From Shigella phage Moonfish: 64,000 nt of DNA. Shown one piece after another: positions 9,466 to 48,988 of this stretch. Made by a program: the position numbers and the translations under genes. The notes below the pieces were generated by a model that did no database searches, was not told the origin of the DNA, and saw only the letters and a list, made by a program, of their open reading frames with translations. Position 1 is the first letter of the stretch. Each line of letters opens with the position of its first letter. The stretch lies in sequence record PQ613263; one strand, given 5' to 3'.

Positions 9466-12400
9466 TTGAACAGGAAACATGCTATGTCAACATTTGACCG
9501 TCTGGCAGGTTTCGCAGACAGCATCACTAATGCCAAGCAAGTCGATGTCTCTACTGCAACCTCTCAGAAGCAAGCTGCACAAGGGCAAAGCCCTTTCCAA
9601 TTAACCCCAGAGAATGCTTACAATCTCCAGACTGGACGTGTAGGTAATCTTGGAACTGGTGCATTCGAACCAGGTTCACTTCAGGCTGACTTCACTCAAG
9701 CCTCCCCATTAGAAATCATTAATAAGTACGGTAATGAGAAAGGTTTACAGATTCTTAATAGCCGAGCTAATGCTGCTGATGTTGTACGTCAGGACTTATC
9801 TAAACAGCGTACTAACGCAGAAGCATTTGGCGATACTCTTTCTGGTGTTGGTCTTGGTGTTGCTAATACCCTTGGGGGCATTGCTGCTCTTGGCACAGGT
9901 CTGGTCAATGATAATGCCGGGGCATCCATTGCTTCCGGGATGGATTGGCTGAATGAAGGTGTACGCAATCTCCAGTCTGATGCACTGAATGCTACCCGTA
10001 AAGTTGTTCAGAATCAGAACCAGATTTCTGCTCAAAAGAACCAGAAACTTTACGAGCAAGATATTAAGAATGGGGAGAACGATTTGGTTGCCTCCCTGTC
10101 TCGCATTGGTCGTGACGCTTTTGATTCTGTTGCTAATACACTTGATAATGGTATGGCTGCTACCGATGGACTGAGCGAAGGTGTTGGTTCCCTCTTTACT
10201 GCTGGTCCACTTATCCGTGGTGTGTCTGCATTAGGTAAAGTAATGGTTGGTGGTGATAAAGCTGTTAGGGGTATTACCTTAGCTGCTGAGTTGGGTTCAC
10301 GTCCTGCACAGGTTGCACTGTCTGCTGGTCGCGTTGCTGCACCTGCTATTGCAATCGGTGGCATGGAAGCAGGTGGTGCATACCAACAGACTGCATCTGA
10401 AATCATGAAGATGTCCCACCAAGAATTGGCAAGTAAGTCTCCTGTTTACCAACAACATATTGCTGATGGTTTACCTCCTGATGAAGCACGTCGTCAGACT
10501 GCATCTGAAACAGGTATCACTGCTGCTGGCTTAACTGCTCCAGTTGCTGCTGCTACTGGTCCACTGGTATCTCGCTTTGAACTTAACCCACTTAGAGTAG
10601 GTTCACTGGCTGGTGCTGGTTCTAATATGTTACGTGAGACTGTAGAAGAAGGTATTCAATCCGGCTTTGGTCAGTTCGCACAGAATACTGCAATCAAGGA
10701 AAATGTTGATGCATCCCGTGACACCCTCAAAGGGGTCGGTGAGCAAGCAGGGCTTGGTGCACTCTACGGCTTCGGTAGTGCTGGAGTTGCTCAAGCTCCT
10801 GGTGCAACTGTTAAAGCTGCTGGTGCTGCCACTGCTCCTGTTGTACGTACTACCCTGGCTGGTGCTTCTCTGGTTGGTAATGCATTAGCTAAAGCTGCTT
10901 CCCCTATTACTAACATTCTGGTTCAACGTGGTGAAGAAGTTGCTAAGCGTAATGAACAAGCATCCCCTGTAGCTGATGCTACGGTTAATGCTGCTGCACA
11001 AGAAGCTACTGCTCAGGCAGAACAAGCACAAGCGACTGTACAGGAAGCAGTAGATGCAATGGATATCTCTCCTGAGGAGAAGGCTGCTGCTACTCAGTAT
11101 GCTGCTGACTTAACTCAGGCAATGAACTTTGACCCTGTAGAATTGGAACAAGCTAACCCGGTAATTCGTGAAGCTGTTTCTGGTTCCACTAACCGTGTTG
11201 AAGCTATTCAGAAGATGGCTGACTTGGTTAATACAGCAGAAGACCCTAACGTTCAAATGGAAGCTGCTATCCAGATGTATGACAACATCATGTCTATGGA
11301 TAGCTTCATTAACCGTGACCCAGGTGCACTGGCTAATCTGGAACAGGGTTCACCTGCTGCTACAATCGTAGACCAGTTCTCTGGTCTGATGGCTAACGTA
11401 CAGAATACACCGAAGGTACTTCGTGCATTCCGTGCTATCCATTCCATGATTCAGGAACAGGCTGAAGCAGGTAAGCTGAAAGCTACTGAAGAAGCTAACC
11501 AAGCTCAAGCAAACAACATTGCCATGGCTGCTGACGTGTCTCCAGAAGTATTGGATGCAGATTCAGTGAACATGGTTCTGAAACATGCAAGTGAAGGTAA
11601 GATTACACTGGGGAATCGTCAACGTGCTGCCCTGCAATCTGCTGCTGCCTTGTTACAGGGTGCACGAGAGTTTGACGCTAAAGCAGAAGAACTAGGCTTA
11701 CGTCCTCAAGACATTGTTAGTAAACAAATTAAAACCGACGAGTCTCGTTCTAACGAAGGACAGTACTCTGCGTTGCAACATGCGAAACGCATTCGTTCTG
11801 CGTATAACTCTGGTAACTTCGATTTGGCTTACGCTTATCTGAGCGACTTTATGAAGTTCGCCCAGCACATGCAGAATAAGGTCGGAGCGTTGAATGAGCA
11901 TCTGATTTCTGGGAATGCGGATAAGAATAAGTCTGTTCATTATCAGGCTCTCTCGCCTTCCCGTGAATGGGTACGTAGTCGTACTGGCCTCGGTGTCAAT
12001 CCTTACGATACCAAGTCTGTTAAGTTTGCCCAGCAAGTAGGACTGGAGGCCAAAACCGTAGCTGATATTGCTAACGCACTTGCTACGGCTTACCCGGAGC
12101 TTAATGTTTCTCATGTGAAAGTTACCTCGTTGGATTCACGTCTGAACAAGCCAGCTGCCCAGGTAGTTAAAGAGTTCCGTCAAGGTGGTCTTGATGCCAC
12201 TCAGTCTCAACAGACCAATGAACCAGTGAATCAGGTTGATGAATCTCCTGCACCAGTGCAAGAGGACACTACTACTGTACAGCCTAAAGCTAAACCTGTG
12301 GTAGAAAATAAGACTGCTCCTACTAAGGAGACTAGCCCAAAAACAGAAGAAGTCTCTACTACCAAGTCTGAAACAGTAGAAGCTACCCTCACTAATGAGG

Positions 12401-15400
12401 ATACCATCCAGGAAGTAGCTGAAACCAAAACAGAAATGGAAACAGTGTTCCCCGTCTATAACAATGAAAAGACACCGAACCAGTTCCTGAAAGCATTTAC
12501 CCTACCAGAAGAACCTAAGTCTCGTACCATTGGTTCTGAGTCTCCGTTGACTGATGTTAAGCAAGCACTGTCTTCTGTTGCTCGCTTTGAAGCATTCACT
12601 CAAAAAGAAAATAACGCTCTCACAGGTGATGTGATTAAGCGTTATCAGGACTTAATGGACTTTGGTGAAACTCTGAAGACTACTTTGTCTGAACGACTGG
12701 CTAAGTTCCTTGCTAACAAAAATGTCGGTAAACGTTTTGCAGAAGGTACGGAAGCTAACCGTTGGGTAGGTGGCAAACTACTGAATATCGTTGAACAAGA
12801 TGGTGACACCTTTAAGTTCAATGACCAGTTGTTAGAGACTGCTGTGCTTGCTGGTCTGCAATGGCGACTAACTGCTACACAGAATGCTGCTGTTAAAGAC
12901 ATGAAAGACGTAGCTGCTATTACGGGTGTAGAAGCATCTCTGTTACCAGAAGGTATTCTGGCTGAGTTCGAGAATGCTCAGACTCTGGTTGAAGCTACTA
13001 ACTCACTGGCTCAGAAGATCGAATCCTACTGGGGTTTGAACCGTAACCCTAATGCACCACTGGGTTATACCAAGGGTATCCCAATGGCAATGGCTACAGA
13101 GATTCTGTCTTCCCTCATTGAGATGGGTGAAGTTAAAGAGTCTATGCTGGATGTGTCTGAGATTGACCCAGATTCCAATAAGACTGTCGGCCTGTATACC
13201 ATTGAGAAGCTGGATGACAATGATGCCATTAACAAATTCCCTACTGCTATTGAGGAAGCTGTCCTCTTAGAACCAGAAGAGAAAATGTATTTCGGTGACG
13301 ACATTCCTTCCGTGGCTCAAACTCAATTACGTAATCCTGCTGTTAAGAATACCCCGGAACAGAAAGCTGCTCTGAAAGTAGAACAGGCTACTGAGTTCCG
13401 TGTACACATGCCGATGGTTAACTTCTATGAAGCTATGGGCCGTGACAACATACTGGAATTGATGGGTGCTGGTTCTCTTAATCCTGAACTGTTGAACGTG
13501 AACACTGCTAAGTCACTGGAGGGTAAAAACCTGTCCGTGTCCATGGCATATGATTCCTTGTTTGGTGTAATCAATCAGATTAAGGAACAGGAGAATGGAC
13601 TAGATACACCTATCCACTATGGCTACAACATGACCCGTGTAGGTCGTATGCAGATGCTTGGTAAGAACAACCCACAGTCCAGCAAACTGGTACGTGAAGC
13701 AATCCTGCCAACCTTCTCTACTATTGACTTGAGTAATGAAAACAGCCAAACGTTCTCTGACTTCCAGTTAGGTCTGGCTCAGGCATTGGGTATCAAGGTT
13801 CATAATATGTCCCGTGAAGCTATGTCTGAAAAGCTGACCAAAGCTTTGGAAGGTAATCTGAAACCTGCTGTTGATATGATGGTTGAGTTTGATAAGTCTG
13901 GTCACTTACCTGCTGATGCAGTTGATATTCTGAAGACATCTCTGGGTGGCGATAAATCATTCGTAGCTCTCATGGCTCTTATGGAATATGCCCGTTACCT
14001 GAACAGTGATGACCGTGCCAACTTTAATACCCCTCTGTACGTTGAAGCCGATGGTGTAACCAACGGTCCGATTAACGCAATGGTATTAATGACTGGTGGT
14101 AAGTTCACTCCAGACTGGATTAAGAATACTGCTAAAGGTGGTTTGTTCTTCGGTAAAGCTGGTAAGACTATGAACGAACATCGTTCACAGGATGACAGTG
14201 TTGACTTGTATGAAGCATCCACCAATGGTCTGCAACAAGCATTGGGTGAATTGCGTAGTACTTACCGTAACAACGTTCCTGTTATGAGCCAGATGAACCA
14301 TCTCCAGAAGTTAATGGACCTGTTCATCAAAGACTTTAACTTGAATGAAGACGGTACTTTGGACCTGAAACGTGGTATCGCTAAAAACCCACTGACTATT
14401 ACCATCTATGGTTCTGGTGCACGTGGTATTGCTGGCAAGATGGTTAGTGCAATTACTGACACCATCTATGAACGCTTCAGTGACGTTCTGCAAGCACGTG
14501 CTGCTGACCCTAGCATTTCCCCAGCTATGGCGATGTTTGGTAAGGAGGCTGCGTCTGAGGCTGATGCTCAGGCTATGCTGGATACTTTCCTTACTTCTAT
14601 GGAAGCACTGACTGGTAATGTTCCAGTTATGCGTAAAGGCGAACTGTCTATTCAACAGGCAGAAGGTGCTCTGACTGGTAAGTTAGACCCTCAGAAGTTT
14701 ACTGTATCTGGTAATGCCTTGAAGAACCTACAAGAGAACATGCTTCACTTGTTCGTTGAACCAATGCGTACAGGTATCCGTAATACTGTTGGTGAAGGTC
14801 TGATGCACTCTACTGAGAACTTGCAGAAGGCTACTCAGATTCAGTCTCTGGTATTGCAGGATATGTTCCAACAAGCAGTACAGGCTAAACTGGCAGAAAA
14901 AGAAAATGACCCAACGTGGAAGAAGGGTGATTTCTTAACACAGAAAGAACTGAATGAAATTCAGGAATCATTATCTCCACTGGCTCCAATGATTGAGACT
15001 GGCGCACAGACTTTCTACATTGCTGGCAGTGAGAATACTGATGTTGCTAACCAAGTACTGGCTACCAACTTAGATGACCGTATGCGTGTGCCAATGAGCA
15101 TCTATGCCCCGTCACAAGCAGGTGTTGCTGGTATTCCATTTATGACCATCGGTACTGGTGATGGCATGATGATGCAGACCCTTTCTACTATGAAAGGTGC
15201 TCCGAAGAATACCCTGAAAATCTTTGATGGCATGAACATTGGTATCAATGACATCACTGATGCAAGCCGTAAAGCTAATGAGGCTGTATACACTTCCTGG
15301 CAGGGTAACCCTATCAAGAATGTTTATGACTCCTTCGCTAAGTTCATGAAGAATGTAGACTTCAGTAAACTGTCTGATGAAACCAAACAGGCTATCGCTA

Positions 15401-18400
15401 AGTCTGCTCTGGAATACGACCAGCGTGAAGGTGCTACTGATGACCTGTTACGTGTTGGTGCTGAACAGATTGAACGTAATCTGCGTAACATTGCTCTGGG
15501 TGTAGATATTCGCCATAAAGTAATGAACCAGGTACAGACTACTGTTGACCAGATGGCTGCTGTAGGTGCTCCTTATGTGAACAACGGTAAAATTTCTCTG
15601 GAAGGTCTGACTGTAGACCAGCAAGTAGCTAAGCTGAACGAACTGTTTGATGCTGAATTAATCAAGCGTCGTGATGCAGTACGTGCTGCTAAAGCAGAAC
15701 CAGTGAAAGAAGTACCGGCGATGGAGCAGGTTGGTCGTGTGCTGAAGTCTGGTGTACGTCTGCTGTCTAACACTGCTATTACTAAGCTGGCTAAAGAGAT
15801 GTCTCCTGAACAGCAAGCAGTATTGAAAGAAGTACAGAACTCCCTTGCTGCTAAAGACTACAAGGTTGTTTATGGTACTCCTGCTCAACTGGATGCTTAC
15901 GCTATTGAGAAGAACATTACTCGCCCAGCACCGGAAGATATTGAAGCTGCTGAAGCTGGTAATGCATACGGCTGGACTAACTTTGATGATAAGACCATCT
16001 ACTTAGTTACTCCTTCCTTAGAGACTCTGGTTCATGAATTGGTACATGCTTCTACTTTCGAATCTGTACTGGCTCACTATGAAGGTACTCCTAATGAAGC
16101 AGTCCAGAATATTGAAGACCTGATGAACCAGTTCCGTGCTCTGGATGTTAAGGATGAATCTCCGGCAGTACGTGAAGCATATGCTGATGCTCTCAATACC
16201 ATTAATGGTCACTTGTCTAATGGCTTTATTGAGCCAGCAATGGCTAAAGCTGCTGCACTTAATGAGTACATGGCATGGGGTTTAACCAACCGTGAACTGA
16301 TTGGTAAGCAGAAGAAAACCACTGCACTTAAGGCCATGGTTCAGTCTGTATATGAAGCAATTAAACGTCTGGTATTTGGGCGTAAGAAAGCTCCTGCTAA
16401 TGCAGATGATATGTTCTCTGGCTTACTGTTTAACTCCTCCGTAGTTATGCGTGGGCAAGCTCCTACTGCTGCTGTGGCTAAGGACACTACCTTGTTCCAT
16501 AGCAAAGCATATGGAGATAACACTCGTCTGGAAGAGTTAGGACAGACCTTCGATAAGCTGATTACTAACTACATTGGTTCAGAACCAGTACAGCAAGTAA
16601 TCCGTAAAGGTAAATTCTCTGATGCAGTAGTGAATGCAACAAAAGTAACTCGTGATGTTCAGGCTCATGGTTTCACTATGAATATGCAGGAACAGCGTCT
16701 CTTTACTAACATTGTTGCTGCACTGGCTACTGAAGCTGCTATTAGCCCAGCTGCTCTGGCTCGTGCACAGGAATACTATGCACACGTTACTAAGAACCTG
16801 ACCGTTGAAGCATTCATGGCTGACCCGGAAAGTACTAACCCTGCTGACCGTTACTACGCACAGCAGAAGTTCGATACCATCATGGGTGCTAACAATATTG
16901 AGTTTGATGCACAGGGTCGTTCTTCCTTACTGCCTACCTTCGTGGCTCTGGCAATGGTAAGTGAAGATGTACGTAACGTACTGGCTGGCATTCCTGTTAT
17001 GAAAGCAGATAAGCAATCTGGTAATACTGTTGATGCAATGCTGACTAACATTGGTACTGCTGCAATGGCTAGCCTGAATGCTCGTGTAGCAGGAGACACT
17101 AAAGCTACCAACGTGCAAGAAGGTATGGATGCACTGGCTCAGACAATCATGCAGACTAGCCTCAATGCACAGTCTTTCTACGATTCCGTTGCTACTCCTA
17201 GTGGTAATGCTATTGACCGTGCTAACCAGTATCTGGTGGACTCTATTGATGTACTGTCTACTCGTGCTTTAGATGGTGCACGTAATGTTGCAGCTAATAC
17301 CAAGAACCCATTGGTTAAAGGTGCTGCTCATGCTGCACAACTGGTAGCTGCTATTGCTACGGAGAAGAATGGTGCAATCGTAGCCGAAGGTGTTATGGCT
17401 GCAATGAACCAGGGTAAGGTATGGCAACCCTTCCATGACTTAGTTAATGACTTAACTGGTCGTACTAAGAGCAATGCTTCTGTATACGATTTAATTAAAG
17501 CAGTACGTGCACAGGTACAAGCTGACCGTCAGCAATTCCGTGAACATCTGCCTACCACTATCGCATCTAAGTTCAGCCGTAAGCTGACTAATGATGAGTG
17601 GAAAGCAATGCATACCGGCATGGGTAAAACTGATTTAGCTGTACTGCGTGACACTATGTCACTGGCTGAAATCCGTGACCTGTTGTCTGACCAGAAGATT
17701 GTTGACCGTGAAGTGAACAAGCTGGAAGCAGATTTGCAGAAACAAGCTGGGCGTAACTGGCCACTGATTAACCGTAAATCTAAGCAACTGGCTCAGTACA
17801 TGATTAACGGCACAGTTGGTAATAATCTGCTGCGTAATGCTACTGCAATCTCTCGTATGCTGGGCGAACGTCAGTCTGCACGTTCTACTGTAGATGTAGC
17901 TCAACTGGATAAACTTATTACCCTGTATGCACTGGAAGCAATGAGCAAAGCTGACCGTGAGCTGTTATCTTCCCTGGCTCAATCAGAAGTTGATGGAATG
18001 GATTTTGCTACTTCTTATCTGGTTGGACAGCGTAAAGATGAAATGGCTAAAGCTAAAACTGATAGCCGTGCAACATTGAACCAGTATAAAGGGCATATCC
18101 CTAGCGAGACTAAGCAGGGTGTTAACCTGATTGTTGCTGAAGATAGCCAGTTTGCTGATTTGATTGAGAAATCCTATGTACGTCTGGGTACTTATCAGGG
18201 TAGTTCTGCTAACCGTGGGCCAGCACGTAGCTACTACTTCGCACCAGTACAGGCACAGGCTCCATTCTCACAGGGCATCTTACAGAACGTTCGTAATACT
18301 GCTGGTGGTGTAGATCTTGGTACAGGCTTTACGATGGGTTCTATGGTAGCAGGTCGTATCACAGACAAGCCTTCAGTAGACCGTATCACTAAAGCTCTGG

Positions 18401-19836
18401 CCCGTGGTGAACGCGGTAATGAACCACTGCTGCCTGTATACGATGACAAAGGTAATGTAGTTGCATATGAGCAGTCTATAGACCCTAACATGCTGAAGCA
18501 CATTGAGGGTGAGAACCATCTTGCACGTGCAATCGGTGTATGGCGTGGTCGTCAGGTGGAAGAAGCTAAGGCTCAGCGTTTTAATGACATGCTGATAGAG
18601 AACCTGCATAGCATGTATGAGAACGACATTAAGATGTCTGCCTCCAATAAGTCCCAGTACGTGAACCTTCTTGGTTCTAAACTGGACCCAGTAACTGCTG
18701 ATGCTCTTAAGCTGATGAACAGTGAGACACGTCAGAAAGCAGAAAGCCTGTTTGGTAATGGTGAACTGTGGGTACGTCGTGACATGCTTAATGATGCTCT
18801 TGGTTATCGTGCAGCTTCTGTAGGTGATGCCTGGTCTGGTAATTCTCGTTGGTCCCCAGAAACGCTGGATACCTTCAAGAAAGCTATGTTAGGTGTGTTC
18901 GGCAATCGTGCTTATAAGTACACAATGGGAGGTGAGAACCTGGTACAGAACTTAGTTAAAGAAGCTAAGACCCTGATTGTAATTAAGTCAGTAGTCGTAC
19001 CTGCTGTTAACTTCTTGGCTAACCTTTACCAGATGGTTGCTCGTGGTGTACCAGTTAAGAACATTGCTAAGAGCATTCCACAGAAAACTGCTGAGATTAA
19101 CCAGTACCTGAAATCTCGTCTGCGTCAGGTAGATGCAGAAGCAGAATTACGTGCAGCTACCAACCCGAACCAGATTCGTAAGCTTAAGGCTGAGATTCAA
19201 TCCATCTCTGATAGCCATAAGCGTATGAGTATCTGGCCTCTGCTGGAAGCTGGTGAGTTCTCTTCAATTGCAGATGCTGGTATTGGGCGTGATGACATCC
19301 TGATTACCGAAGGTAAACTTCAGGAATATATGGATAAACTGGCTGATAAGTTGCCTAAGTCTGTACGTACTGCTGGGCGGTATGCACTCATCACTAAGGA
19401 TACTGCTCTTTTCCAGGGTATCCAGAAAACCGTTGAGTACTCTGACTTTATCGCTAAAGCAATCATCTATGATGAATTGACTCAGCGTAAAGGCAAGACT
19501 CGTGAAGAAGCACTTGGACGTGTAACTGAAGAGTTTGTTAACTATGACCGTCTGCCTGGTCGCTTCCGTGGATATATGGAAAGCGTTGGTTTAATGTGGT
19601 TCTACAACTTTAAGATTCGTTCTGCAAAAGTTGCAGTATCCATGATTCGTAATAACCCAGTACATGCAGCAATGGCTATGTTGGCTCCAGCTCCTACCAT
19701 GTTTGGTAACGTTGGTCTGCCTATTCAGGACAACGTATTTAGTATTGCTGCTAAGGGTGGGCTGGATTCTTCTTGGGGCTTTGGTCAGGGGCTGCGTGCT
19801 CACAACCTGAACCCTTGGTTGAACCTGGTAAACTAA
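9466..19836 (+). CDS. virion-encapsidated giant RNA polymerase (vRNAP, N4 gp50-like)
   Basis: Single uninterrupted 3456-aa ORF (10.4 kb) at the end of the virion gene module; a protein of this size in this position is the hallmark of N4-like phages. All antisense ORFs inside it are short. Confidence 0.9.
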   Translation: MNRKHAMSTFDRLAGFADSITNAKQVDVSTATSQKQAAQGQSPFQLTPENAYNLQTGRVGNLGTGAFEPGSLQADFTQASPLEIINKYGNEKGLQILNSRANAADVVRQDLSKQRTNAEAFGDTLSGVGLGVANTLGGIAALGTGLVNDNAGASIASGMDWLNEGVRNLQSDALNATRKVVQNQNQISAQKNQKLYEQDIKNGENDLVASLSRIGRDAFDSVANTLDNGMAATDGLSEGVGSLFTAGPLIRGVSALGKVMVGGDKAVRGITLAAELGSRPAQVALSAGRVAAPAIAIGGMEAGGAYQQTASEIMKMSHQELASKSPVYQQHIADGLPPDEARRQTASETGITAAGLTAPVAAATGPLVSRFELNPLRVGSLAGAGSNMLRETVEEGIQSGFGQFAQNTAIKENVDASRDTLKGVGEQAGLGALYGFGSAGVAQAPGATVKAAGAATAPVVRTTLAGASLVGNALAKAASPITNILVQRGEEVAKRNEQASPVADATVNAAAQEATAQAEQAQATVQEAVDAMDISPEEKAAATQYAADLTQAMNFDPVELEQANPVIREAVSGSTNRVEAIQKMADLVNTAEDPNVQMEAAIQMYDNIMSMDSFINRDPGALANLEQGSPAATIVDQFSGLMANVQNTPKVLRAFRAIHSMIQEQAEAGKLKATEEANQAQANNIAMAADVSPEVLDADSVNMVLKHASEGKITLGNRQRAALQSAAALLQGAREFDAKAEELGLRPQDIVSKQIKTDESRSNEGQYSALQHAKRIRSAYNSGNFDLAYAYLSDFMKFAQHMQNKVGALNEHLISGNADKNKSVHYQALSPSREWVRSRTGLGVNPYDTKSVKFAQQVGLEAKTVADIANALATAYPELNVSHVKVTSLDSRLNKPAAQVVKEFRQGGLDATQSQQTNEPVNQVDESPAPVQEDTTTVQPKAKPVVENKTAPTKETSPKTEEVSTTKSETVEATLTNEDTIQEVAETKTEMETVFPVYNNEKTPNQFLKAFTLPEEPKSRTIGSESPLTDVKQALSSVARFEAFTQKENNALTGDVIKRYQDLMDFGETLKTTLSERLAKFLANKNVGKRFAEGTEANRWVGGKLLNIVEQDGDTFKFNDQLLETAVLAGLQWRLTATQNAAVKDMKDVAAITGVEASLLPEGILAEFENAQTLVEATNSLAQKIESYWGLNRNPNAPLGYTKGIPMAMATEILSSLIEMGEVKESMLDVSEIDPDSNKTVGLYTIEKLDDNDAINKFPTAIEEAVLLEPEEKMYFGDDIPSVAQTQLRNPAVKNTPEQKAALKVEQATEFRVHMPMVNFYEAMGRDNILELMGAGSLNPELLNVNTAKSLEGKNLSVSMAYDSLFGVINQIKEQENGLDTPIHYGYNMTRVGRMQMLGKNNPQSSKLVREAILPTFSTIDLSNENSQTFSDFQLGLAQALGIKVHNMSREAMSEKLTKALEGNLKPAVDMMVEFDKSGHLPADAVDILKTSLGGDKSFVALMALMEYARYLNSDDRANFNTPLYVEADGVTNGPINAMVLMTGGKFTPDWIKNTAKGGLFFGKAGKTMNEHRSQDDSVDLYEASTNGLQQALGELRSTYRNNVPVMSQMNHLQKLMDLFIKDFNLNEDGTLDLKRGIAKNPLTITIYGSGARGIAGKMVSAITDTIYERFSDVLQARAADPSISPAMAMFGKEAASEADAQAMLDTFLTSMEALTGNVPVMRKGELSIQQAEGALTGKLDPQKFTVSGNALKNLQENMLHLFVEPMRTGIRNTVGEGLMHSTENLQKATQIQSLVLQDMFQQAVQAKLAEKENDPTWKKGDFLTQKELNEIQESLSPLAPMIETGAQTFYIAGSENTDVANQVLATNLDDRMRVPMSIYAPSQAGVAGIPFMTIGTGDGMMMQTLSTMKGAPKNTLKIFDGMNIGINDITDASRKANEAVYTSWQGNPIKNVYDSFAKFMKNVDFSKLSDETKQAIAKSALEYDQREGATDDLLRVGAEQIERNLRNIALGVDIRHKVMNQVQTTVDQMAAVGAPYVNNGKISLEGLTVDQQVAKLNELFDAELIKRRDAVRAAKAEPVKEVPAMEQVGRVLKSGVRLLSNTAITKLAKEMSPEQQAVLKEVQNSLAAKDYKVVYGTPAQLDAYAIEKNITRPAPEDIEAAEAGNAYGWTNFDDKTIYLVTPSLETLVHELVHASTFESVLAHYEGTPNEAVQNIEDLMNQFRALDVKDESPAVREAYADALNTINGHLSNGFIEPAMAKAAALNEYMAWGLTNRELIGKQKKTTALKAMVQSVYEAIKRLVFGRKKAPANADDMFSGLLFNSSVVMRGQAPTAAVAKDTTLFHSKAYGDNTRLEELGQTFDKLITNYIGSEPVQQVIRKGKFSDAVVNATKVTRDVQAHGFTMNMQEQRLFTNIVAALATEAAISPAALARAQEYYAHVTKNLTVEAFMADPESTNPADRYYAQQKFDTIMGANNIEFDAQGRSSLLPTFVALAMVSEDVRNVLAGIPVMKADKQSGNTVDAMLTNIGTAAMASLNARVAGDTKATNVQEGMDALAQTIMQTSLNAQSFYDSVATPSGNAIDRANQYLVDSIDVLSTRALDGARNVAANTKNPLVKGAAHAAQLVAAIATEKNGAIVAEGVMAAMNQGKVWQPFHDLVNDLTGRTKSNASVYDLIKAVRAQVQADRQQFREHLPTTIASKFSRKLTNDEWKAMHTGMGKTDLAVLRDTMSLAEIRDLLSDQKIVDREVNKLEADLQKQAGRNWPLINRKSKQLAQYMINGTVGNNLLRNATAISRMLGERQSARSTVDVAQLDKLITLYALEAMSKADRELLSSLAQSEVDGMDFATSYLVGQRKDEMAKAKTDSRATLNQYKGHIPSETKQGVNLIVAEDSQFADLIEKSYVRLGTYQGSSANRGPARSYYFAPVQAQAPFSQGILQNVRNTAGGVDLGTGFTMGSMVAGRITDKPSVDRITKALARGERGNEPLLPVYDDKGNVVAYEQSIDPNMLKHIEGENHLARAIGVWRGRQVEEAKAQRFNDMLIENLHSMYENDIKMSASNKSQYVNLLGSKLDPVTADALKLMNSETRQKAESLFGNGELWVRRDMLNDALGYRAASVGDAWSGNSRWSPETLDTFKKAMLGVFGNRAYKYTMGGENLVQNLVKEAKTLIVIKSVVVPAVNFLANLYQMVARGVPVKNIAKSIPQKTAEINQYLKSRLRQVDAEAELRAATNPNQIRKLKAEIQSISDSHKRMSIWPLLEAGEFSSIADAGIGRDDILITEGKLQEYMDKLADKLPKSVRTAGRYALITKDTALFQGIQKTVEYSDFIAKAIIYDELTQRKGKTREEALGRVTEEFVNYDRLPGRFRGYMESVGLMWFYNFKIRSAKVAVSMIRNNPVHAAMAMLAPAPTMFGNVGLPIQDNVFSIAAKGGLDSSWGFGQGLRAHNLNPWLNLVN

Positions 19837-19846
19837 AATAAAAAAA

Positions 19847-19864
19847 GCCCCTCATTAGAGGGGC
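19847..19864. terminator. bidirectional intrinsic terminator between convergent vRNAP and minus-strand genes
   Basis: GCCCCTC-atta-GAGGGGC hairpin flanked by A-run upstream and T-run downstream. Confidence 0.65.
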
Positions 19865-19871
19865 TTTACTT

Positions 19872-20108
19872 TCAGAATCTTTCAATTCGCTTATTGAGTA
19901 TGTATAGGTAGGAACCCATAGCTTGGTGTTGTAAACCGAGCAGATACTTATCCTCTGGCTCAATTTCGCGAGATTTTGGGCTGAGTAAGAAATTACCCAG
20001 AGTTTCATACTTCTCTTTGAGATTATCTCGCTCTACCAGTACACGTACTTGATGTTCTGCAAAAGATTTAGTCATGTGTTCCTCACATTTTAGGCTTACG
20101 CCCCTCAC
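19872..20108 (-). CDS. hypothetical protein
   Basis: 78-aa ORF on minus strand. Confidence 0.4.
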   Translation of the reverse strand: MRGVSLKCEEHMTKSFAEHQVRVLVERDNLKEKYETLGNFLLSPKSREIEPEDKYLLGLQHQAMGSYLYILNKRIERF

Positions 20109-20301
20109 TTGGTAATTTACCAGTCTCTTTAATCTTCTGTAGTGTTTCTTCCGTTGGGAACCACAGGAATGCGAAGTAAAGCTCTTTAGCTACGTAACGA
20201 GTTACTCCTAGTTTCTCTGCGATTTCATCGAATGAATACGTACGAACAGTATTGTTGAGAATGGCTTCACGAACAACAGAGGTAATAGATACTTGCGTCA
20301 T
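20083..20301 (-). CDS. hypothetical protein
   Basis: 72-aa ORF; overlaps the neighbouring ORF by 26 nt. Confidence 0.4.
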   Translation of the reverse strand: MTQVSITSVVREAILNNTVRTYSFDEIAEKLGVTRYVAKELYFAFLWFPTEETLQKIKETGKLPSEGRKPKM

Positions 20302-20310
20302 AATAGTTTC

Positions 20311-20826
20311 CTACATGATTATCCAGTCTTCGGCTAATATATCTGATTGTGAGGGAACCCAGGGCATAAACTCATTATCAACCGTTTTAATTCCCAACCA
20401 ATGTCGTTTCCTGCAAGTGGAATTCTCATGTTTATCCATGGACCAATATTTACTTGATACCAAGGTGATATACATTCCTTTTCCATTCCAGGCTTTACGG
20501 CTCATTCTAGAGCCAGTCTTCACAAGTTCAATTGCGCAACCAAAGGTGCAGCCTTTATCCACATTAAAGTAAGTGGACTCAAATACAGGTGCCGGTGACC
20601 AGCTAATATAGCCACGGAATTGGGGATGGTTGGGCAGGGAATCTGTATACTCGACTAAGTAACCATTCTCTGATGGGTCTTCATCTGCTGGTACATCCCA
20701 GCCACGAAGTTTGCAGTATGTTCCCTTATTCATCGGGAAACCATTTACATGCTTGGTTCCAATATAGTTAGAGAACTGAACTTTAATTTCTTCTGTCATA
20801 TCTACCTCAAACGAGAAAGCCCTCAC
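20311..20826 (-). CDS. hypothetical protein (Cys/Trp-rich)
   Basis: 171-aa ORF, coding-like composition. Confidence 0.55.
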   Translation of the reverse strand: MRAFSFEVDMTEEIKVQFSNYIGTKHVNGFPMNKGTYCKLRGWDVPADEDPSENGYLVEYTDSLPNHPQFRGYISWSPAPVFESTYFNVDKGCTFGCAIELVKTGSRMSRKAWNGKGMYITLVSSKYWSMDKHENSTCRKRHWLGIKTVDNEFMPWVPSQSDILAEDWIIM

Positions 20827-20917
20827 TAGGAGGGATTGTTTTGTTTTGGCTTCTAGAGCCTTACCACATGTCGGGTAGTTCAGTACCTTTCGGTAAAAAC
20901 TACCTTACACCTGTTTG

Positions 20918-21310
20918 TTAAATTGTGCAACCACCACCGTCACATGTGTTGTTTTCTGCAAAGGAAGCCAGTGCCTTAGCAGTCTCCTCTTTCTCATGCA
21001 GTACCTGTCGTAGCAGGTAACCTTCTAATTCCCAAATCTTATTGAATGCATTTTCATATGCATACCGACGACCTACCCACTCATCATAGATAGCTGGGTC
21101 AACACAGGCAGATACGCCTTCAACTTTGAAGCCATTTTCCAGGATGATAGTGCAATAGGTTACTAGGCTCAGATTAGCCAAATCATCTTCCGGGATTGCA
21201 GAAGGGTTAGCGAACCCAGACTTCACTGCATCAGCACCATTGAAATAGTAGACACTTTTGATTTTAGCTTCGATTGATTCTTTACTTACTGTTGCCATTA
21301 TTAGCCTCAT
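20918..21310 (-). CDS. hypothetical protein
   Basis: 130-aa ORF; true start may be the internal Met at MATVSK. Confidence 0.5.
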   Translation of the reverse strand: MRLIMATVSKESIEAKIKSVYYFNGADAVKSGFANPSAIPEDDLANLSLVTYCTIILENGFKVEGVSACVDPAIYDEWVGRRYAYENAFNKIWELEGYLLRQVLHEKEETAKALASFAENNTCDGGGCTI

Positions 21311-21467
21311 AGAGTGGTTTGAGTTTGTACTTAAACATGACTGCGTTGTTATAGGCTACGCTACCTGCAAACACCAAGGAATTACGTCCACGGTTATCCG
21401 TTACCTCATAGGCATACGGGGTTAAGATTAGGTCAATCATCTTGAATGTCCAACTAGTAATATTCAA
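21282..21467 (-). CDS. hypothetical small protein
   Basis: 61-aa ORF downstream of a hairpin. Confidence 0.35.
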   Translation of the reverse strand: MNITSWTFKMIDLILTPYAYEVTDNRGRNSLVFAGSVAYNNAVMFKYKLKPLYEANNGNSK

Positions 21468-21474
21468 ATAAAAA

Positions 21475-21494
21475 AGTCCATCCGAAGAGGGACT
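21475..21494 (-). terminator. putative terminator downstream of tRNA-like region
   Basis: AGTCC...GGACT hairpin with A/T runs on both sides. Confidence 0.4.
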
Positions 21495-21654
21495 TAGTAG
21501 CTTTTAATAGATAGCTGTATTTGAGCATTATAGTCTGCTCATACTCACACTCTTCTGTCGAAGAATATGTTTACAATACCTAGAGTGCCGGACTGTCTTA
21601 CCGGCATTGTCTTTAGAGTGCTAAGCAATCAGGACTATGTTCTCTATTAATGGG

Positions 21655-21728
21655 TGCCCACTACTGGATTTGAACCAGTGACTTTCCGATTATTAGTCGG
21701 TTGCTTTCCCCGTCTAAGCTAAGCGGGC
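21655..21728 (-). tRNA. tRNA gene (manual fold); anticodon loop CUAAUAA, anticodon AAU if numbering is canonical (Ile-type; A34 is unusual)
   Basis: Folded by hand on minus strand: acceptor GCCCGCT/AGTGGGC (one G.U), D-stem GCTT/AAGC with GG in D-loop, anticodon stem CCGA/UCGG, perfect T-arm ACTGG-TTCAAAT-CCAGT, discriminator A. Confidence 0.6.
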
Positions 21729-21929
21729 ATTGATAGGTGAGTCCTGCCAGGCTTTAACTGGCTCCTTCTTCGCAATCCTTACATACCCCTACATAATTAT
21801 TGCGTTAAGCTTTTTTGTTTAAGTTTAAGTGAAGGCGTTCTTGCTGACTCATAATTAGGTGAGGCGTTTGACGAATGACTAGTTCGTTACTACCTCGTTG
21901 TTTGCCATAAGTACCTGGCGACTTCAGGT

Positions 21930-22260
21930 AACGGGGGATGGAATCGAACCACCAGTACTAAGTCTTATTCGTGCACCAAGCACGCTAGTGGATTACTCCA
22001 CCGGAGGGAATCGAACCCCATCTACTTCACCAGACCCGTCTTAATTCTTACAATTAGTGAGAACACTTACCCTGGTTTAGGAGTTGAACCTAATTGGGGA
22101 GTAGTTTACGAACATTTTTCACTCCTTTCCCGGTAGCCAAGATAAGAGTTCTCACGAATTGGTTCCGGCGTCTGGACTCGAACCAACGAGAGAAGTAGCG
22201 ACCAACTGCACATGCCTACGTGCTACCCCGACCATTATAATAGGAGGGAGGGGACGAGTC
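21930..22260 (-). other. cluster of four additional tRNA T-arm-like motifs (GGTTCGAnTCC) at ~70-95 nt spacing; canonical cloverleaves not confirmed by hand
   Basis: Minus-strand T-arm-like stems/loops centred near 21945, 22012, 22085, 22179; one is followed by ...CGCCGGA-A-CCA; I could not pair acceptor stems or find 7-nt anticodon loops. Confidence 0.3.
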
Positions 22261-22632
22261 CTCCCTTCATACCCTATGTTACATGTAAGACCTAACATCT
22301 CGATGCTGGATGAATAGCTTAATAAACTATCCGACATTATTGGTTAATGTTGTGCTCAACACGAGCGTTAGTTGATAAGGGATCTGAAGCCTTATCCCAA
22401 AGAAACCAACCTTTGGGATATAGCCTAAGATTCAGAAATGGCCCCCATAGGAGAGGCCATTGATTAACCCGAATGTTGCTTTACATTTTCTGAGATAACC
22501 CATTCTTAAAATAGTCTGTCTGACGGATGGGGAGCTACCCCTAGCGTCAGTGCCATACGGCAAAGATTAAGTTAAGAAAGGTTATGATAGGAGTTCCTAT
22601 CTCAAAGGATTCTGACAGAACCCTTCACGATA

Positions 22633-22803
22633 TTAACTACTCTTTTTCAGTGCTTCTACTTCACCATCTTTATACCAAGCGTATGGTACTAAGACTTTGC
22701 AGCCTTCTGAATCAATGTGGAATGCTTTGTTTCCTTCAACAGGTTCTCCACCCACGAAAGAACTAACCTTTCCATTGAGCCAGTGAATAGTAAATTTGTT
22801 CAT
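22633..22803 (-). CDS. hypothetical small protein (56 aa, below track cutoff)
   Basis: ATG with weak GAGG RBS; ORF MNKFTIHWLNGKVSSFVGGEPVEGNKAFHIDSEGCKVLVPYAWYKDGEVEALKKSS read from the sequence. Confidence 0.3.
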   Translation of the reverse strand: MNKFTIHWLNGKVSSFVGGEPVEGNKAFHIDSEGCKVLVPYAWYKDGEVEALKKSS

Positions 22804-23034
22804 ATTAACCTCGTTTGAGCCAATCCCCTTCGGAGAGTATTAAAGGGGACTGGCTCGGTTGTTGTTATTCTGGCGGCTTGTCACCACCGTGTTTACCACT
22901 GCATTTCCACAGGATAATGACAGTGATGATAAAAGCTATGTATGGAGCCGACACGTCTATAATCCTGACTAGTAGTAACATCAGGACTATAAACACTACC
23001 ACACCTAGCAGCAGCTTCTGAGCCACCTACCAGA

Positions 23035-23511
23035 TTAACTACGTTTCAGGCCAGCGAACAGTGAAGGTTTCGCAGCAGGTTTCTCTGCTGGTTCTTCAAC
23101 CTTAACTTCTTCCTGCACAACTTCTTCTTGTGCTTCTGGTTCAGCTACTGCTTCTTCTTCTACAGCAACTTCTACTTCAGGTTCCGGCGTAGAACTCTCG
23201 TTCTGACCACCAGTAGAGGTCTGGGTTTCCTCTTCCTTTACCTCTTCAGCCTGAGCTTCTTCTTCTTCCTCTACAACTTCCGGTTCTACCGGACGATGTT
23301 TGGCTTCCTGAGGGTTCTTACGAGGACGACGTGTCTTCTTACCTACCAAGGGTGGAGTATCATCGTTATGATTTACCTCTTCGTTGATACCAACGGAGGC
23401 TGTACCATCTGCATTGATGACAATACTAATGTCACCAGCAAGATTGATTTGATCATCTACATAAGCCTGTACAGCAGCTTCTACTTCGGACTGGTTCAAA
23501 ATGATTTGCAT
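23035..23511 (-). CDS. acidic Glu/Pro-rich protein of unknown function
   Basis: 158-aa ORF; C-terminal two-thirds dominated by E, V, P, A repeats (…EEEEEAQAEEVKEEETQ…PEPEVEVAVEEEAVAEPEAQEE…). Confidence 0.6.
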   Translation of the reverse strand: MQIILNQSEVEAAVQAYVDDQINLAGDISIVINADGTASVGINEEVNHNDDTPPLVGKKTRRPRKNPQEAKHRPVEPEVVEEEEEAQAEEVKEEETQTSTGGQNESSTPEPEVEVAVEEEAVAEPEAQEEVVQEEVKVEEPAEKPAAKPSLFAGLKRS

Positions 23512-23512
23512 G

Positions 23513-24067
23513 TTACGCCTTTAATAATTTAATGAGGTTCTGGAAAGATGGGAGATTTACACCAGCGTGGATTGCACCGATTGCATCAGCCAAGTGCTCA
23601 TTCTTATTTAGAAGTTTGCCTTTCTTATCAGTGAGCCAGTTGGCTTCAGGATAAATGGCATGAGCAGCACGAATCATCGTGTCTTTGGATGCAGTCTTAT
23701 CACCGACCAGTGCAAGTTTGTTTTCAATTGGGGATACTTCAAAGATTGGACAACCCAATGCACGAAATGCACCGATTAATCCTACGCATACACCATAGGA
23801 CTTCATACCGTTAGCGGACTGAGAGCCTACTGGTACTTCTACGAATACTGCTTTAGCAGACCGTAACCATTCCTCACAACCAAGAAACAAATCATGAGAG
23901 GCTTGTATATCTTTGGAGTTGGTTCGAACTTGTTTGTTGTGGTCAACTTCAGTTTGAACCAGTTTAAGTTCGACCTGCTCGAAGACGCCGGACTCAATGT
24001 CCAGCATCCCACGAGCTAAACCCCAATTGCGGAGACTAATATCTGCACCAACAATTGGGATTTTCAT
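23513..24067 (-). CDS. RuvC-like Holliday junction resolvase
   Basis: 184 aa; N-terminal IVGADISLRNWGLA resembles the RuvC ILGIDPG motif; C-terminal HLADAIGAIHAG resembles the RuvC D-A-x-D-A-x-A-I signature. Confidence 0.6.
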   Translation of the reverse strand: MKIPIVGADISLRNWGLARGMLDIESGVFEQVELKLVQTEVDHNKQVRTNSKDIQASHDLFLGCEEWLRSAKAVFVEVPVGSQSANGMKSYGVCVGLIGAFRALGCPIFEVSPIENKLALVGDKTASKDTMIRAAHAIYPEANWLTDKKGKLLNKNEHLADAIGAIHAGVNLPSFQNLIKLLKA

Positions 24068-24864
24068 TATTTCTTACCGAACAGTGATTTACCACCTGCC
24101 GGAGCAGGACCAGTGTTAGCACCCGGTTTAGGAGGCAAGCCACCTTTACCATTACCACCAGCAGAACCCTTGGTCTTATCACGGGTTTTACCTTTGTTCT
24201 TTTCCAACCATGCTGTATGGAATACAGCCAGTTCTGGGGTCAGTTCTTTCTCAGCCTTCTCTGCTTCCTGAGCCTCGATGACTGTGACCAGCAGTTCCGG
24301 GTGAAACACTTTCTGAATCTCGTTTACTTCACGAGTTTCACCAGAGTCAACGTAACCGTTGTCACCTTTAACCTGCTTAGCTTCCAGAACCTTTTCCAGA
24401 GCAAAGGTAACAGTCTGACCTACCAGTTCAACTGGAACCATGACAGACTTGTTGGTTTCTGCTTTCAGGTCAAAGTCATAGACTTTAACAATCTTCTCTT
24501 CGAAGTCAGCATCCGGCAGTTCATTACCAGTAGCCATCAGCATCATGTCATTAATGACAGTGTAACCAGGCAGGAAGTATTCTTTACCGTTCTTCTCGTA
24601 AGTCGGCTTGTTGCCTTTAGCATTACCAGAAGTGAAGTACACCTGGGCACGGAACTCACCAGCATCATTTCCATCGGAACCTTTCAGGTTTTCGATGATT
24701 AACTGCATCCAGTCTGCACCGGAGTCAGCTTTACCTACGTAAGCTACTTTTACAGTACCGGTATAGATATCAGTTTCTTTGGCACCGAAGCCACCACCAC
24801 CAAGGGAGTCTTTTGCAGCTTCAACGTTTTTGGTTTTTTCTTTCAAGTTACCGAACAGTGACAT
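24067..24864 (-). CDS. single-stranded DNA-binding protein (N4-type SSB candidate)
   Basis: 265-aa ORF with Gly-rich basic C-terminus, located between resolvase and ATPase genes; size and position match N4 SSB (inference, not motif-based). Confidence 0.5.
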   Translation of the reverse strand: MSLFGNLKEKTKNVEAAKDSLGGGGFGAKETDIYTGTVKVAYVGKADSGADWMQLIIENLKGSDGNDAGEFRAQVYFTSGNAKGNKPTYEKNGKEYFLPGYTVINDMMLMATGNELPDADFEEKIVKVYDFDLKAETNKSVMVPVELVGQTVTFALEKVLEAKQVKGDNGYVDSGETREVNEIQKVFHPELLVTVIEAQEAEKAEKELTPELAVFHTAWLEKNKGKTRDKTKGSAGGNGKGGLPPKPGANTGPAPAGGKSLFGKK

Positions 24865-24905
24865 AGTATTTTTTCCTATTAAGTGATTAACAACCAGGCA
24901 AACGC

Positions 24906-25658
24906 TTAAGCGTAGTATTCAGCCAGATGGTCTAAGAGTTTTTGAGCGTCATTATCAATGTACGTCTCTGATTTATCGAACATACCCATTGGGGAACGTA
25001 AGCGTTTACCAACAGACTTCTTGGTTGGGCGAGTCTGGAATACGTGCTTATAGCCTAAGTCACGTTCTTCTTCGGTAATTTCAAGCATCTTGTTGCCATA
25101 CTTCTCCAGTTCTTTAATGTCTACACGTTCTGCGTAAACCACTGTAGAGAAGTATGCCTCAAGGCCATTATTCTTCAGGGAGCCTTTCACTGGGATGAAG
25201 GTTTTCATCACACCAGCTGCCTCGTCGAGTTCATCTTTGGCATGAGCAGTAATGATTACAGGCTTACCAAACTTAACAACTTTCTGTTGCAGCAGTACTT
25301 TAAAGAACTGTGCAAAGTCTCCCCAGGCTTTCTGGGTATTAGCAGATGGCAATACATATTGTGATTCCAACATGTCCATCATGAAGGTAGCAGAGTCGAT
25401 AATGATACCATCAACATCGTCTGCCATTTCCCCACCCGGAGATGCAACATCAAATGCTTCCCAAATCTGATATGGGTCTTCAATGTTGTAGGTGTTGAAC
25501 TTATTACGGAAAGGTAGGCGTTTACCTGCTTCAGTATTCAGATACAACCAGCGTTCCTGGTTACGAATATTACGCAGTGATGCTGATTTACCACTCGCTG
25601 AAAATCCTGCAATCAGGATTAGCTGAGTGTTCATATCATTGGAAATTTCTTCGGACAT
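24906..25658 (-). CDS. P-loop ATPase, Sak4/AAA_24-like recombination ATPase candidate
   Basis: 250 aa; Walker A GFSASGKS near N-terminus; compact RecA-like size; adjacent to SSB and nuclease genes. Confidence 0.5.
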   Translation of the reverse strand: MSEEISNDMNTQLILIAGFSASGKSASLRNIRNQERWLYLNTEAGKRLPFRNKFNTYNIEDPYQIWEAFDVASPGGEMADDVDGIIIDSATFMMDMLESQYVLPSANTQKAWGDFAQFFKVLLQQKVVKFGKPVIITAHAKDELDEAAGVMKTFIPVKGSLKNNGLEAYFSTVVYAERVDIKELEKYGNKMLEITEEERDLGYKHVFQTRPTKKSVGKRLRSPMGMFDKSETYIDNDAQKLLDHLAEYYA

Positions 25659-47861: not shown

Positions 47862-48988
47862 CTGCCAGAGGCTGTCATCCAGCTTACCCGCAGAGAACTC
47901 TTGTCCCAGTACCTGAGATAGGATGAAGCCCAGCAAGTCACTCTTAGCAATGTCAGATAGAATCTGATTGTACTGACGACGTAGGTCATTACCATAGTTA
48001 GGATGACAACGAAAACCATTAGTTAAACGAGTCGTTAGCTCGCCCTTACCTTCCATGATTAACATGAAAGCCATATGTAGCATCTGCTTGTTTACGAGCA
48101 AGCATTGCCTCCTCAAGTGTGTCGTACGTACCCAGACCGATCTGTTTGCGATTGACTGTGATGTGTGCCTGAAATCTACCAGAAGGCAGTATTCTCACAC
48201 CGTTCACTTTGCTTGAAGTATTACTAGATAAACTCATATTCATCTGGTTCTGTCTGCTGGTTACATTTCTCAAATTAGACCAACGATTGTCGTTTCTAGT
48301 ATGATTGATGTGGTCCACCTGGTTAGGTGTTTCCCCAGTTTCCATTATCCAGATTATTCGATGTAGTAAGTACTCTTTGCGGCCCAGGCTAACGGATAGA
48401 TACCCTTCTTTGTGAGGATACCCCACAATTGTTCCGGCTAACCCACTGGCAGAGTCATAACGATGAGTCACTAGCCCACTATCCCTGTCATACCTTAAAA
48501 CCTTCTGCAAAGATTCTTGGGTAATATTACCCAAGTTTATTATTAGGTTTTTACAGGTAGAGCATAGATGACCTATTGGACTCTTTCTAGCATCATAGAA
48601 GTTACAAACAAACTCATTAGAGCATTGCTTGCAACTACAGATAGCTGTGTACTTACCAGTTTTACGTAATATTTGAGAGTTATCTAACATATGGATTCCT
48701 TAGTAATTTTGCATACAATTTCAGATTGTATCCTAACCAAGGAAGTAAGTCTCCAATTTTCACTGGAGTATCGGACTATATCATCACCCACTAATCAGTG
48801 GGGCAAGGCGCTTGGGTGGTCACTTGACTCACCTACTCTACTCACATACGAAATGCTTTCGATAGTCTCTGAACCTTCCCTCATAGAGGGCTTGGCTGCT
48901 GATTGGCATATCCATAGGACTTAGCTTTCCAGCAATTCACCTTGTTTTCGACACGGATTACTCCGTGAAGGATCATTTATGTTTAATC
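47862..48988 (-). mobile_element. probable group I intron (~1.1 kb) in RNAP II large-subunit gene, carrying an HNH-AP2 endonuclease ORF
   Basis: Upstream ORF stops right after ...VLTVHD, 9-10 codons short of a T7-like C-terminus that is encoded 1.1 kb downstream in frame-compatible position; splice after caU with intron ending caG satisfies U/G group I rules. Confidence 0.55.
48046..48690 (-). CDS. HNH endonuclease with AP2 DNA-binding domain (intron-encoded)
   Basis: 214 aa; own AAGGAA RBS; HNH_3-like GYLSVSL...HRIIWIMETGETPNQVDHINHTRNDNRWSNLR; C-terminal AP2-like GVRILPSGRFQAHI...GTYDTLEEA. Confidence 0.8.
   Translation of the reverse strand: MLDNSQILRKTGKYTAICSCKQCSNEFVCNFYDARKSPIGHLCSTCKNLIINLGNITQESLQKVLRYDRDSGLVTHRYDSASGLAGTIVGYPHKEGYLSVSLGRKEYLLHRIIWIMETGETPNQVDHINHTRNDNRWSNLRNVTSRQNQMNMSLSSNTSSKVNGVRILPSGRFQAHITVNRKQIGLGTYDTLEEAMLARKQADATYGFHVNHGR

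Follow-up and report, generated by a model that had tools for sequence, protein, structure and literature searches.

A conserved tRNA gene with the anticodon AAU in an N4-like phage of Escherichia coli, a possible dedicated decoder of AUU

The 64,000-nucleotide stretch of Shigella phage Moonfish analyzed here (record PQ613263; hereafter the window) contains a single tRNA gene, and its anticodon is AAU. We confirmed the gene, its fold and its anticodon with several tools and found the same anticodon in every related copy that we compared. The interpretation we favor, to which we assign about an even chance, is that the product is a functional elongator tRNA that is charged with isoleucine by the host, keeps its A34 unmodified and specializes in AUU; the phage would thereby gain a dedicated decoder for its commonest Ile codon, alongside the host GAU tRNA. 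Weighing against this interpretation are the departure of A34 from the G34 or lysidine determinant of IleRS, the dispensability of the gene, its location among tRNA-like remnants and a CCA that lies out of register. We do not regard the gene as a new kind of system; it is a naturally conserved split-box ANN tRNA in an E. coli phage.

An earlier note, made from the letters of the window, had folded a good cloverleaf by hand at 21655-21728 and taken it for the only clearly folding tRNA of the stretch. ARAGORN, Rfam and RNAfold all gave this same fold, on the minus strand (the note had named no strand), and neither ARAGORN nor Rfam found a second tRNA in the window, a permissive Rfam search of 19000-25000 also returning none. 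ARAGORN made a single call, tRNA-Ile(aat), at 21651-21729. The Rfam match (21728-21655) covered the full length of the RF00005 model (1-71 of 71) and scored well above the curated threshold (gathering score 29; E = 1.6e-11 for the whole window, both strands), and the minimum free energy (MFE) structure from RNAfold was the same cloverleaf (−22.9 kcal/mol, z = −2.3). Divided into its structural segments, the RNA reads GCCCGCU UA GCUU AGACGGGGA AAGC A A-CCGA CUAAUAA UCGG-A AAGUC ACUGG UUCAAAU CCAGU AGUGGGC A. It has an acceptor stem of 7 bp (including G5.U68), a D stem of 4 bp, a D loop of 9 nt with G18G19, a variable loop of 5 nt, a T stem of 5 bp, the T loop UUCAAAU and the discriminator A73; the anticodon stem has 4 bp and is topped by an A27.A43 mismatch, the single deviation from a canonical elongator cloverleaf. 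The canonical marks of an elongator tRNA (U8, A14, G18G19, U33, a purine at 37 and a T loop of the form UUCNANU) are all present. The 7-nt anticodon loop (C32 U33 A34 A35 U36 A37 A38) is closed by A31-U39, and U33 and A37 flank the anticodon. The note's reading of this loop as CUAAUAA, with A at position 34, is thus upheld by ARAGORN, the Rfam alignment and the MFE fold alike. It had added that a software fold in another register, with a standard anticodon, would overturn that reading; no tool gave such a register. The tRNAscan-SE call that it had proposed as a check is already published for copies 97-99% identical to this one (UE-S5a and relatives), and is tRNA-Ile-AAT (PMC11927229). On the antisense strand (21654-21728, plus), the Rfam model 'Plastid-ycf2 5'UTR' matched with 37 bits, short of its gathering score (65.7); this match is an artefact of tRNA antisense similarity. 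Coordinates of the main features are collected in Table 1.

Table 1. Position, strand and basis of assignment of the tRNA gene and of features around it in the window
Feature	Position	Strand	Basis
tRNA gene, 74 nt	21655..21728	-	ARAGORN; Rfam RF00005, 63.8 bits; MFE fold is the cloverleaf; pairing in homologues
Anticodon A34-A35-U36	21692..21694	-	ARAGORN, Rfam, sequence; invariant in 25/25 copies
3' trailer CCCA after A73	21651..21654	-	sequence
Probable intrinsic terminator	21470..21494	-	read from sequence; PhAPEC7 has an ARNold terminator annotated at the homologous site
Non-coding block directly upstream of tRNA	21729..21930 (conserved stretch up to 22003)	-	identity among relatives
gp49-position ORF, Tad2-like (Thoeris anti-defence 2) domain	20311-20826	-	PF11195, E = 6e-22
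crAss001_48 family ORF	19872-20108		Pfam
Virion RNA polymerase homologue, 3456-aa ORF	9466-19836	+	

In a single alignment, the window tRNA was 78% identical to the CAU tRNA of EcP1, 73-76% to ileX-type tRNAs (E. coli ileX, 73%), 63.5% to metT, 57% to argQ and 55% to ileV(GAU). Every outgroup match that we inspected has a CAU anticodon (EcP1, ileZ of Stx phages, tRNAs of Aeromonas and Listeria phages, and ileX-like genes of E. coli), as do the IMG/VR contigs that share its anticodon stem. Because its body is closest to that of CAU-type tRNA-Ile2, the window tRNA is a C34-to-A derivative of that lineage, a tRNA-Ile2 (CAU) gene having become an AAU tRNA by this one change. Known members of the lineage (CAU with lysidine; ileX/ileY, ileZ of Stx phages and the 'tRNA-Met' of EcP1; 73-78% identity in the body) have the same anticodon stem, the same loop except at position 34, and a similar T arm and variable loop, and C4-G69, U12-A23, C29-G41 and A73 are common to them and the window tRNA. 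The class is defined as a TilS substrate by C34 in a CAU anticodon, whereas the window tRNA has AAU, and by the similarity of its body we regard it as a descendant, not a member. EcP1, an Enterobacter phage also of the Schitoviridae, carries its CAU tRNA at a different locus, in an Asn-Pro-'Met' cluster next to a gp69 homologue. We considered a cellular source and rejected it: the D-arm pattern of the window tRNA was without a match in 185,579 species genomes, and the best matches in E. coli genomes were CAU tRNAs of 76-78% identity.

With the 74-nt gene as query, we found 38 Gamaleyavirus-type records, comprising about 29 named phages, at 91.7-98.6% identity. We then compared 25 copies (15 distinct sequences) drawn from phage records, IMG/VR and metagenomes, some of them retrieved by a D-arm pattern that placed no constraint on the anticodon, and the anticodon was AAU in all 25 (15/15 distinct sequences). 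Ten of the 74 columns vary. Six of these are in stems; of the remainder, one is in the D loop (17a), two are in the variable loop (44 and 45) and one is the discriminator. No change falls in the anticodon loop, the D stem or the T arm of the 15 distinct copies. Despite the six variable stem columns, all 20 stem pairs are intact in every distinct variant (300/300 stem cells paired): pair 2:71 is C-G, U.G or U-A, pair 29:41 is C-G, or U-A in KKP 3715, pair 5:68 is G.U or A-U, and pair 1:72 is G-C or G.U, with compensatory double changes in 2:71 and 29:41. Only 2 of 500 shuffles reached the observed pairing and covariation scores. Mean column identity in this set is 97%, and the adjacent 200 nt of non-coding DNA upstream is at least as conserved; because divergence is this low and the upstream block is no less conserved, the signal of selection consists of about six pairing-preserving substitutions.

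The gene itself is dispensable, since it is precisely absent from St11Ph5, where the two flanks abut, and disrupted in Bas96, where the acceptor stem and T arm are kept, an unrelated 31-nt segment takes the place of the anticodon arm, and the resulting chimera is annotated as tRNA-Val. It is conceivable, if unlikely, that the C34-to-A change inactivated an AUA-reading tRNA-Ile2 and that the gene merely lingers as a relic in a young lineage, within a slowly diverging block. Its absence and breakage in these two phages would fit such a history, as would the conservation of the upstream block, the unconserved, out-of-register CCA, and the presence nearby of several degenerate tRNA-like pieces, with badly folded 'Undet' and 'Cys(ACA)' calls in relatives. 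A gene in decay would not, however, be expected to have changed in six stem columns with pairing kept throughout, twice by double changes, or to have held its anticodon loop, D stem and T arm invariant, and at 63.8 bits it scores as functional tRNAs typically do, while the neighboring remnants score nothing in Rfam. A role outside translation (say, as a decoy resembling a tRNA, a signal for processing or a cassette for recombination) seems to us highly improbable: this region does gain and lose tRNA-sized cassettes at sharply defined junctions, but U33, A37, G18G19, the T loop, A73 and the IleRS determinants have all been kept, and neither a decoy nor a punctuation mark would require them.

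As a functional tRNA, the product would be transcribed on the early/middle strand, and its transcript probably ends about 160 nt downstream of the gene at an intrinsic terminator, in which the hairpin AGUCC-C-UC[UUCG]GA-U-GGACU precedes a run of U. A simple terminator scanner did not list this hairpin. CCA is not encoded in register, and the trailer is CTTA, CATA, CTCA or TCCA in some relatives. ARAGORN called a 79-nt form with an 8-bp acceptor stem (U-1:A73), a discriminator C and an encoded CCA; we did not accept this as the conserved form, since two copies have A in place of U-1 and five have CTTA, CATA or CTCA in place of CCA. The mature 3' end would thus probably need trimming and CCA addition by the host. 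The non-coding block directly upstream is 94-100% identical in most relatives, as against roughly 89% for the surrounding 3 kb. It folds weakly better than shuffled sequences (z = −1.9) and, even at E values up to 10, matches no Rfam family; it could serve the tRNA transcript as leader or promoter, or be an RNA of another kind.

For E. coli IleRS, the discriminator, the anticodon and t6A37 are strong determinants, and C4-G69, U12-A23 and C29-G41 are minor ones (PMC9976931). The window tRNA carries A73, C4-G69, U12-A23 and C29-G41, together with A35, U36, A37 and A38. The D-stem pair is printed as U12-G23 in the review; we have taken it to be U12-A23, following the primary study. Departures from this set among relatives are few (U29-A41 in KKP 3715 and G73 in two metagenome copies). 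At position 34, G or lysidine is a strong anticodon determinant (PMC9976931), and here all 25 copies have A. Since the AAU tRNA departs from the known determinants only at position 34, we infer that the host IleRS would charge it with isoleucine, and we agree with the earlier note that an isoleucine-decoding tRNA is plausible. MetRS is dependent on C34. Because TilS and MetRS both act through that base, the AAU tRNA would need no lysidine and should escape mischarging with methionine; unlike tRNA-Ile2, it would not be lysidinylated and should not read AUA. For TilS, action through C34 is documented (PMC9976931).

AUU is the main Ile codon of the phage. Over 71 long ORFs of the window, AUU, AUC and AUA make up 57/32/11% of Ile codons, the 13 late genes giving 65/30/5% and the 58 early/middle genes 53/33/14%, as compared to 47/48/5% in a sample of 36 genes of E. 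coli K-12. Per 1000 codons, AUU occurs 32 times in the window and 27 times in the K-12 sample, and AUA 8.5 times in early/middle genes and 2.8 times in the K-12 sample. The host reads AUU only through G34.U wobble of its abundant tRNA-Ile(GAU). We looked for strong codon compensation and rejected it, the excess of AUU over the host being modest and part of a preference for U-ending codons that extends genome-wide across codon boxes beyond that of Ile. Because host tRNA-Ile(GAU) is abundant and the U-ending bias is general, any benefit from codon supply would be modest; we consider it plausible but not compelling.

What the tRNA reads depends on the state of A34, and the earlier note had taken A34 to imply a need for modification. 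Published work in E. coli does not bear this out. A construct with the identical loop CUAAUAA, M. jannaschii tRNA(AAU), contained no inosine by cDNA sequencing and reassigned AUU at 4.5%, AUC at 0.43% and AUG at 0.27%, with AUA below detection, so that AUU was read about ten times as well as AUC (PMC11066159). If A34 of the phage tRNA stays unmodified, as these experiments on the same loop suggest, it would read AUU by Watson-Crick A:U pairing, AUC about tenfold less well and AUA not detectably. In a 2026 preprint by Raval et al., E. coli tolerated or benefited from overexpression of an Ile-tRNA(AAU): in at least two media both growth rate and final OD rose, and the predicted mistranslation load of this tRNA was low. 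These engineered tRNAs (the M. jannaschii construct of Schmitt et al. 2024 and those of Raval et al.) share the host species with the phage tRNA and provide the only direct decoding or modification data, although they are an orthogonal, Tyr-charged body or overexpressed genes, whereas the phage tRNA is a natural viral gene.

That A34 is instead converted to inosine, by host TadA or another enzyme, to give a tRNA-Ile(IAU) that reads AUU, AUC and the host-rare AUA without TilS, we regard as quite improbable. TadA substrates have the loop C32 U33 A34 C35 G36 A37 A38, as in K-12 argQ (CUACGAA); the window loop equals it at 32, 33, 34, 37 and 38 and has A and U in place of C and G at 35 and 36. A three-codon reader would suit the enrichment of AUA in early/middle genes and the origin of the tRNA in an AUA-reading lineage, and Raval et al. 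inferred I34 for one two-codon-box ANN tRNA, Phe-AAA, and suggested that TadA may be flexible, Ile lying outside that assay. The loop CUAAUAA was nevertheless unmodified in E. coli on the other body, and only 3 of 15 ANN anticodons were modified at all, none of them differing from ACG at both 35 and 36 (PMC11066159). Cytosolic tRNA-Ile(AAU) of eukaryotes has the same encoded anticodon and presumably the same amino acid; there, ADAT2/3 deaminates A34 quantitatively and IleRS uses I34 as a determinant (PMC9976931), whereas the host TadA is specific for ACG-like loops and the E. coli data for AAU show no inosine (PMC11066159). A tRNA deaminase encoded by the phage was also considered and rejected: the CDA-type motif H/CxE...PCxxC occurs in none of the six frames of the window (about 8 kb of the genome lie beyond it), no Pfam match around the tRNA is to such an enzyme, and the single deaminase annotated in bases 1-50,000 of the 71,778 of PhAPEC7 is a dCTP deaminase.

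The 3 kb around the tRNA match 91 phage records, the best of them at about 89-90% identity and belonging to Gamaleyavirus (UE-S5a, PhAPEC5/7, ECBP1, Bp4 and others; Schitoviridae, N4-like coliphages), and judged by these matches the window comes from a Gamaleyavirus, an N4-like phage of E. coli. Late genes lie on the plus strand and early/middle genes on the minus strand, and the tRNA sits at the far end of the minus-strand block, with small ORFs downstream of gp46/gp47 homologues on one side and gp48/gp49 homologues on the other. The only Pfam matches on ORFs around it are to the Tad2-like, N4 gp49 and crAss001_48 families; the Tad2-like ORF is two genes away, and the record of one relative labels two ORFs of the region as anti-CRISPR. 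From the virion RNA polymerase gene to the tRNA, the DNA has the look of an accessory or anti-defence region.

This setting brings up the possibility that the tRNA serves in defence, an A34 decoder escaping nucleases or toxins that recognize G34 of tRNA-Ile(GAU) and so keeping AUU-rich messages translatable, which we consider distinctly unlikely. Both the variability of the accessory region and the nearby Tad2-like and anti-CRISPR labels would accord with it, but this genomic context is suggestive only, and all support is circumstantial. HepS, a nuclease of a Salmonella prophage, cuts tRNA-Ile(GAU) as a secondary target, and the model of its authors needs U36 and a G at 34 or 35, whereas AAU has no G; its activators, however, are siphovirus tail proteins, and the window phage is of the podovirus type. 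We know of no E. coli nuclease that has tRNA-Ile as its main target, and an AUU-only decoder would leave the 32% of Ile codons that are AUC unserved. Precedent comes from phage tRNAs that are reported to rescue infection from anticodon nucleases and to carry changes in the anticodon loop (PMC10264068, PMC11555353, PMC11464382). The tRNAs concerned (T5 tRNA-Lys against PARIS, T5 tRNA-Tyr against retron Eco7, and mycobacteriophage loop mutants) resemble the window tRNA in being phage-borne and altered in the loop, and the location of the latter in an accessory region near an anti-defence-type gene is a further likeness. They keep the host anticodon and alter neighboring loop bases, whereas the window tRNA differs in the wobble base itself, and no cognate nuclease is known for it.

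The anticodon places the phage gene among rare company. The earlier note had called unmodified A34 rare in bacteria, and in the literature A34 is indeed rare there outside Arg-ACG. Such tRNAs include Leu-AAG and Thr-AGU of Lactobacillales and the two-codon-box ANN genes of GtRNAdb, with which the window tRNA shares an encoded non-ACG A34 in a genome biased toward U-ending codons. The lineage-retained bacterial cases lie in four-codon boxes and replace a GNN tRNA, and the two-codon-box ANN genes have been described only as sporadic; the window tRNA, in contrast, belongs to the Ile box, is kept in about 29 phages on a CAU-type scaffold and would act beside the host GAU tRNA. Related phages label the gene tRNA-Ile, 'tRNA-Xle' or 'tRNA-Met-like', or leave it unannotated, and the GenBank note for KKP 3715 gives tRNA-Ile(aat). 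In a full-text literature search for Ile-AAT in phages we found no phage paper that discusses A34, the only mention being a descriptive one (PMC11927229). The gene is therefore already annotated in related phages, its A34 is undiscussed there, and it belongs to the rare class of non-ACG A34 tRNAs.

A more ambitious claim, which we put forward tentatively and with rather low confidence, is that this split-box ANN tRNA has been kept in about 29 phages for one of two reasons, either as an A34 AUU specialist that escapes G34-directed nucleases or as a tRNA in which TadA makes an I34 that reads all three Ile codons. If true, it would be the first lineage-retained natural split-box ANN tRNA in a bacterial system and would offer a tractable test of why cells exclude such tRNAs. 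Non-ACG A34 tRNAs are nearly absent from bacteria for reasons that are debated, and the evidence so far has come from engineered tRNAs; a natural Ile(AAU) gene in phages of the best-studied bacterial host, some relatives of which are without an intact copy, makes the state of A34, charging, decoding and fitness measurable. The gene would also show how a single base change can convert an AUA reader that depends on TilS into an AUU reader that does without it. On a practical level, the labels 'tRNA-Xle', 'tRNA-Met-like' and 'none' in relatives could be harmonised.

Other tRNA-like sequences lie close to the gene. At a relaxed threshold, ARAGORN made one extra call, a badly paired 'Ala(cgc)' at 22164-22231 (minus). 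T-arm-like motifs (GGTTCGAGTCC, GGGGTTCGATTCCC and GGTGGTTCGATTCCATC) occur on the minus strand at 22164-22231, about 22005-22030 and about 21930-21960, respectively, in surroundings that no longer fold as tRNA, and the three pieces together look like a decayed tRNA array. Homologues of the piece at 22164-22231 are annotated in St11Ph5 and ECBP1 as 'tRNA-Ala(cgc)', which, with its U3-A70 and U37, is unlikely to work as a tRNA for alanine. Among relatives, tRNA-sized cassettes come and go at sharp junctions (L001 1791-1866; L003 2299-2377; L034 1215-1299; L033 about 1187-1195), and an 'Undet' tRNA-like sequence with a 6-nt anticodon loop adjoins Ile(AAU). The 'Cys(ACA)' of relatives, a second A34 call, is absent from the window and badly paired where present, and we have not taken it as evidence.

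Elsewhere in the window, the homologue of the large subunit of N4 RNAPII, an ORF at 48983-50014 with an RNA_pol domain, is followed by a group I intron (48751-48994, minus; Rfam RF00028, 91 bits). An HNH/AP2 endonuclease ORF (48046-48690) lies just downstream of this intron, and the two RNAP subunit genes have a NUMOD1 ORF (50016-50597) between them; in PhAPEC7, introns are found instead in the DNA polymerase and gp44 genes.
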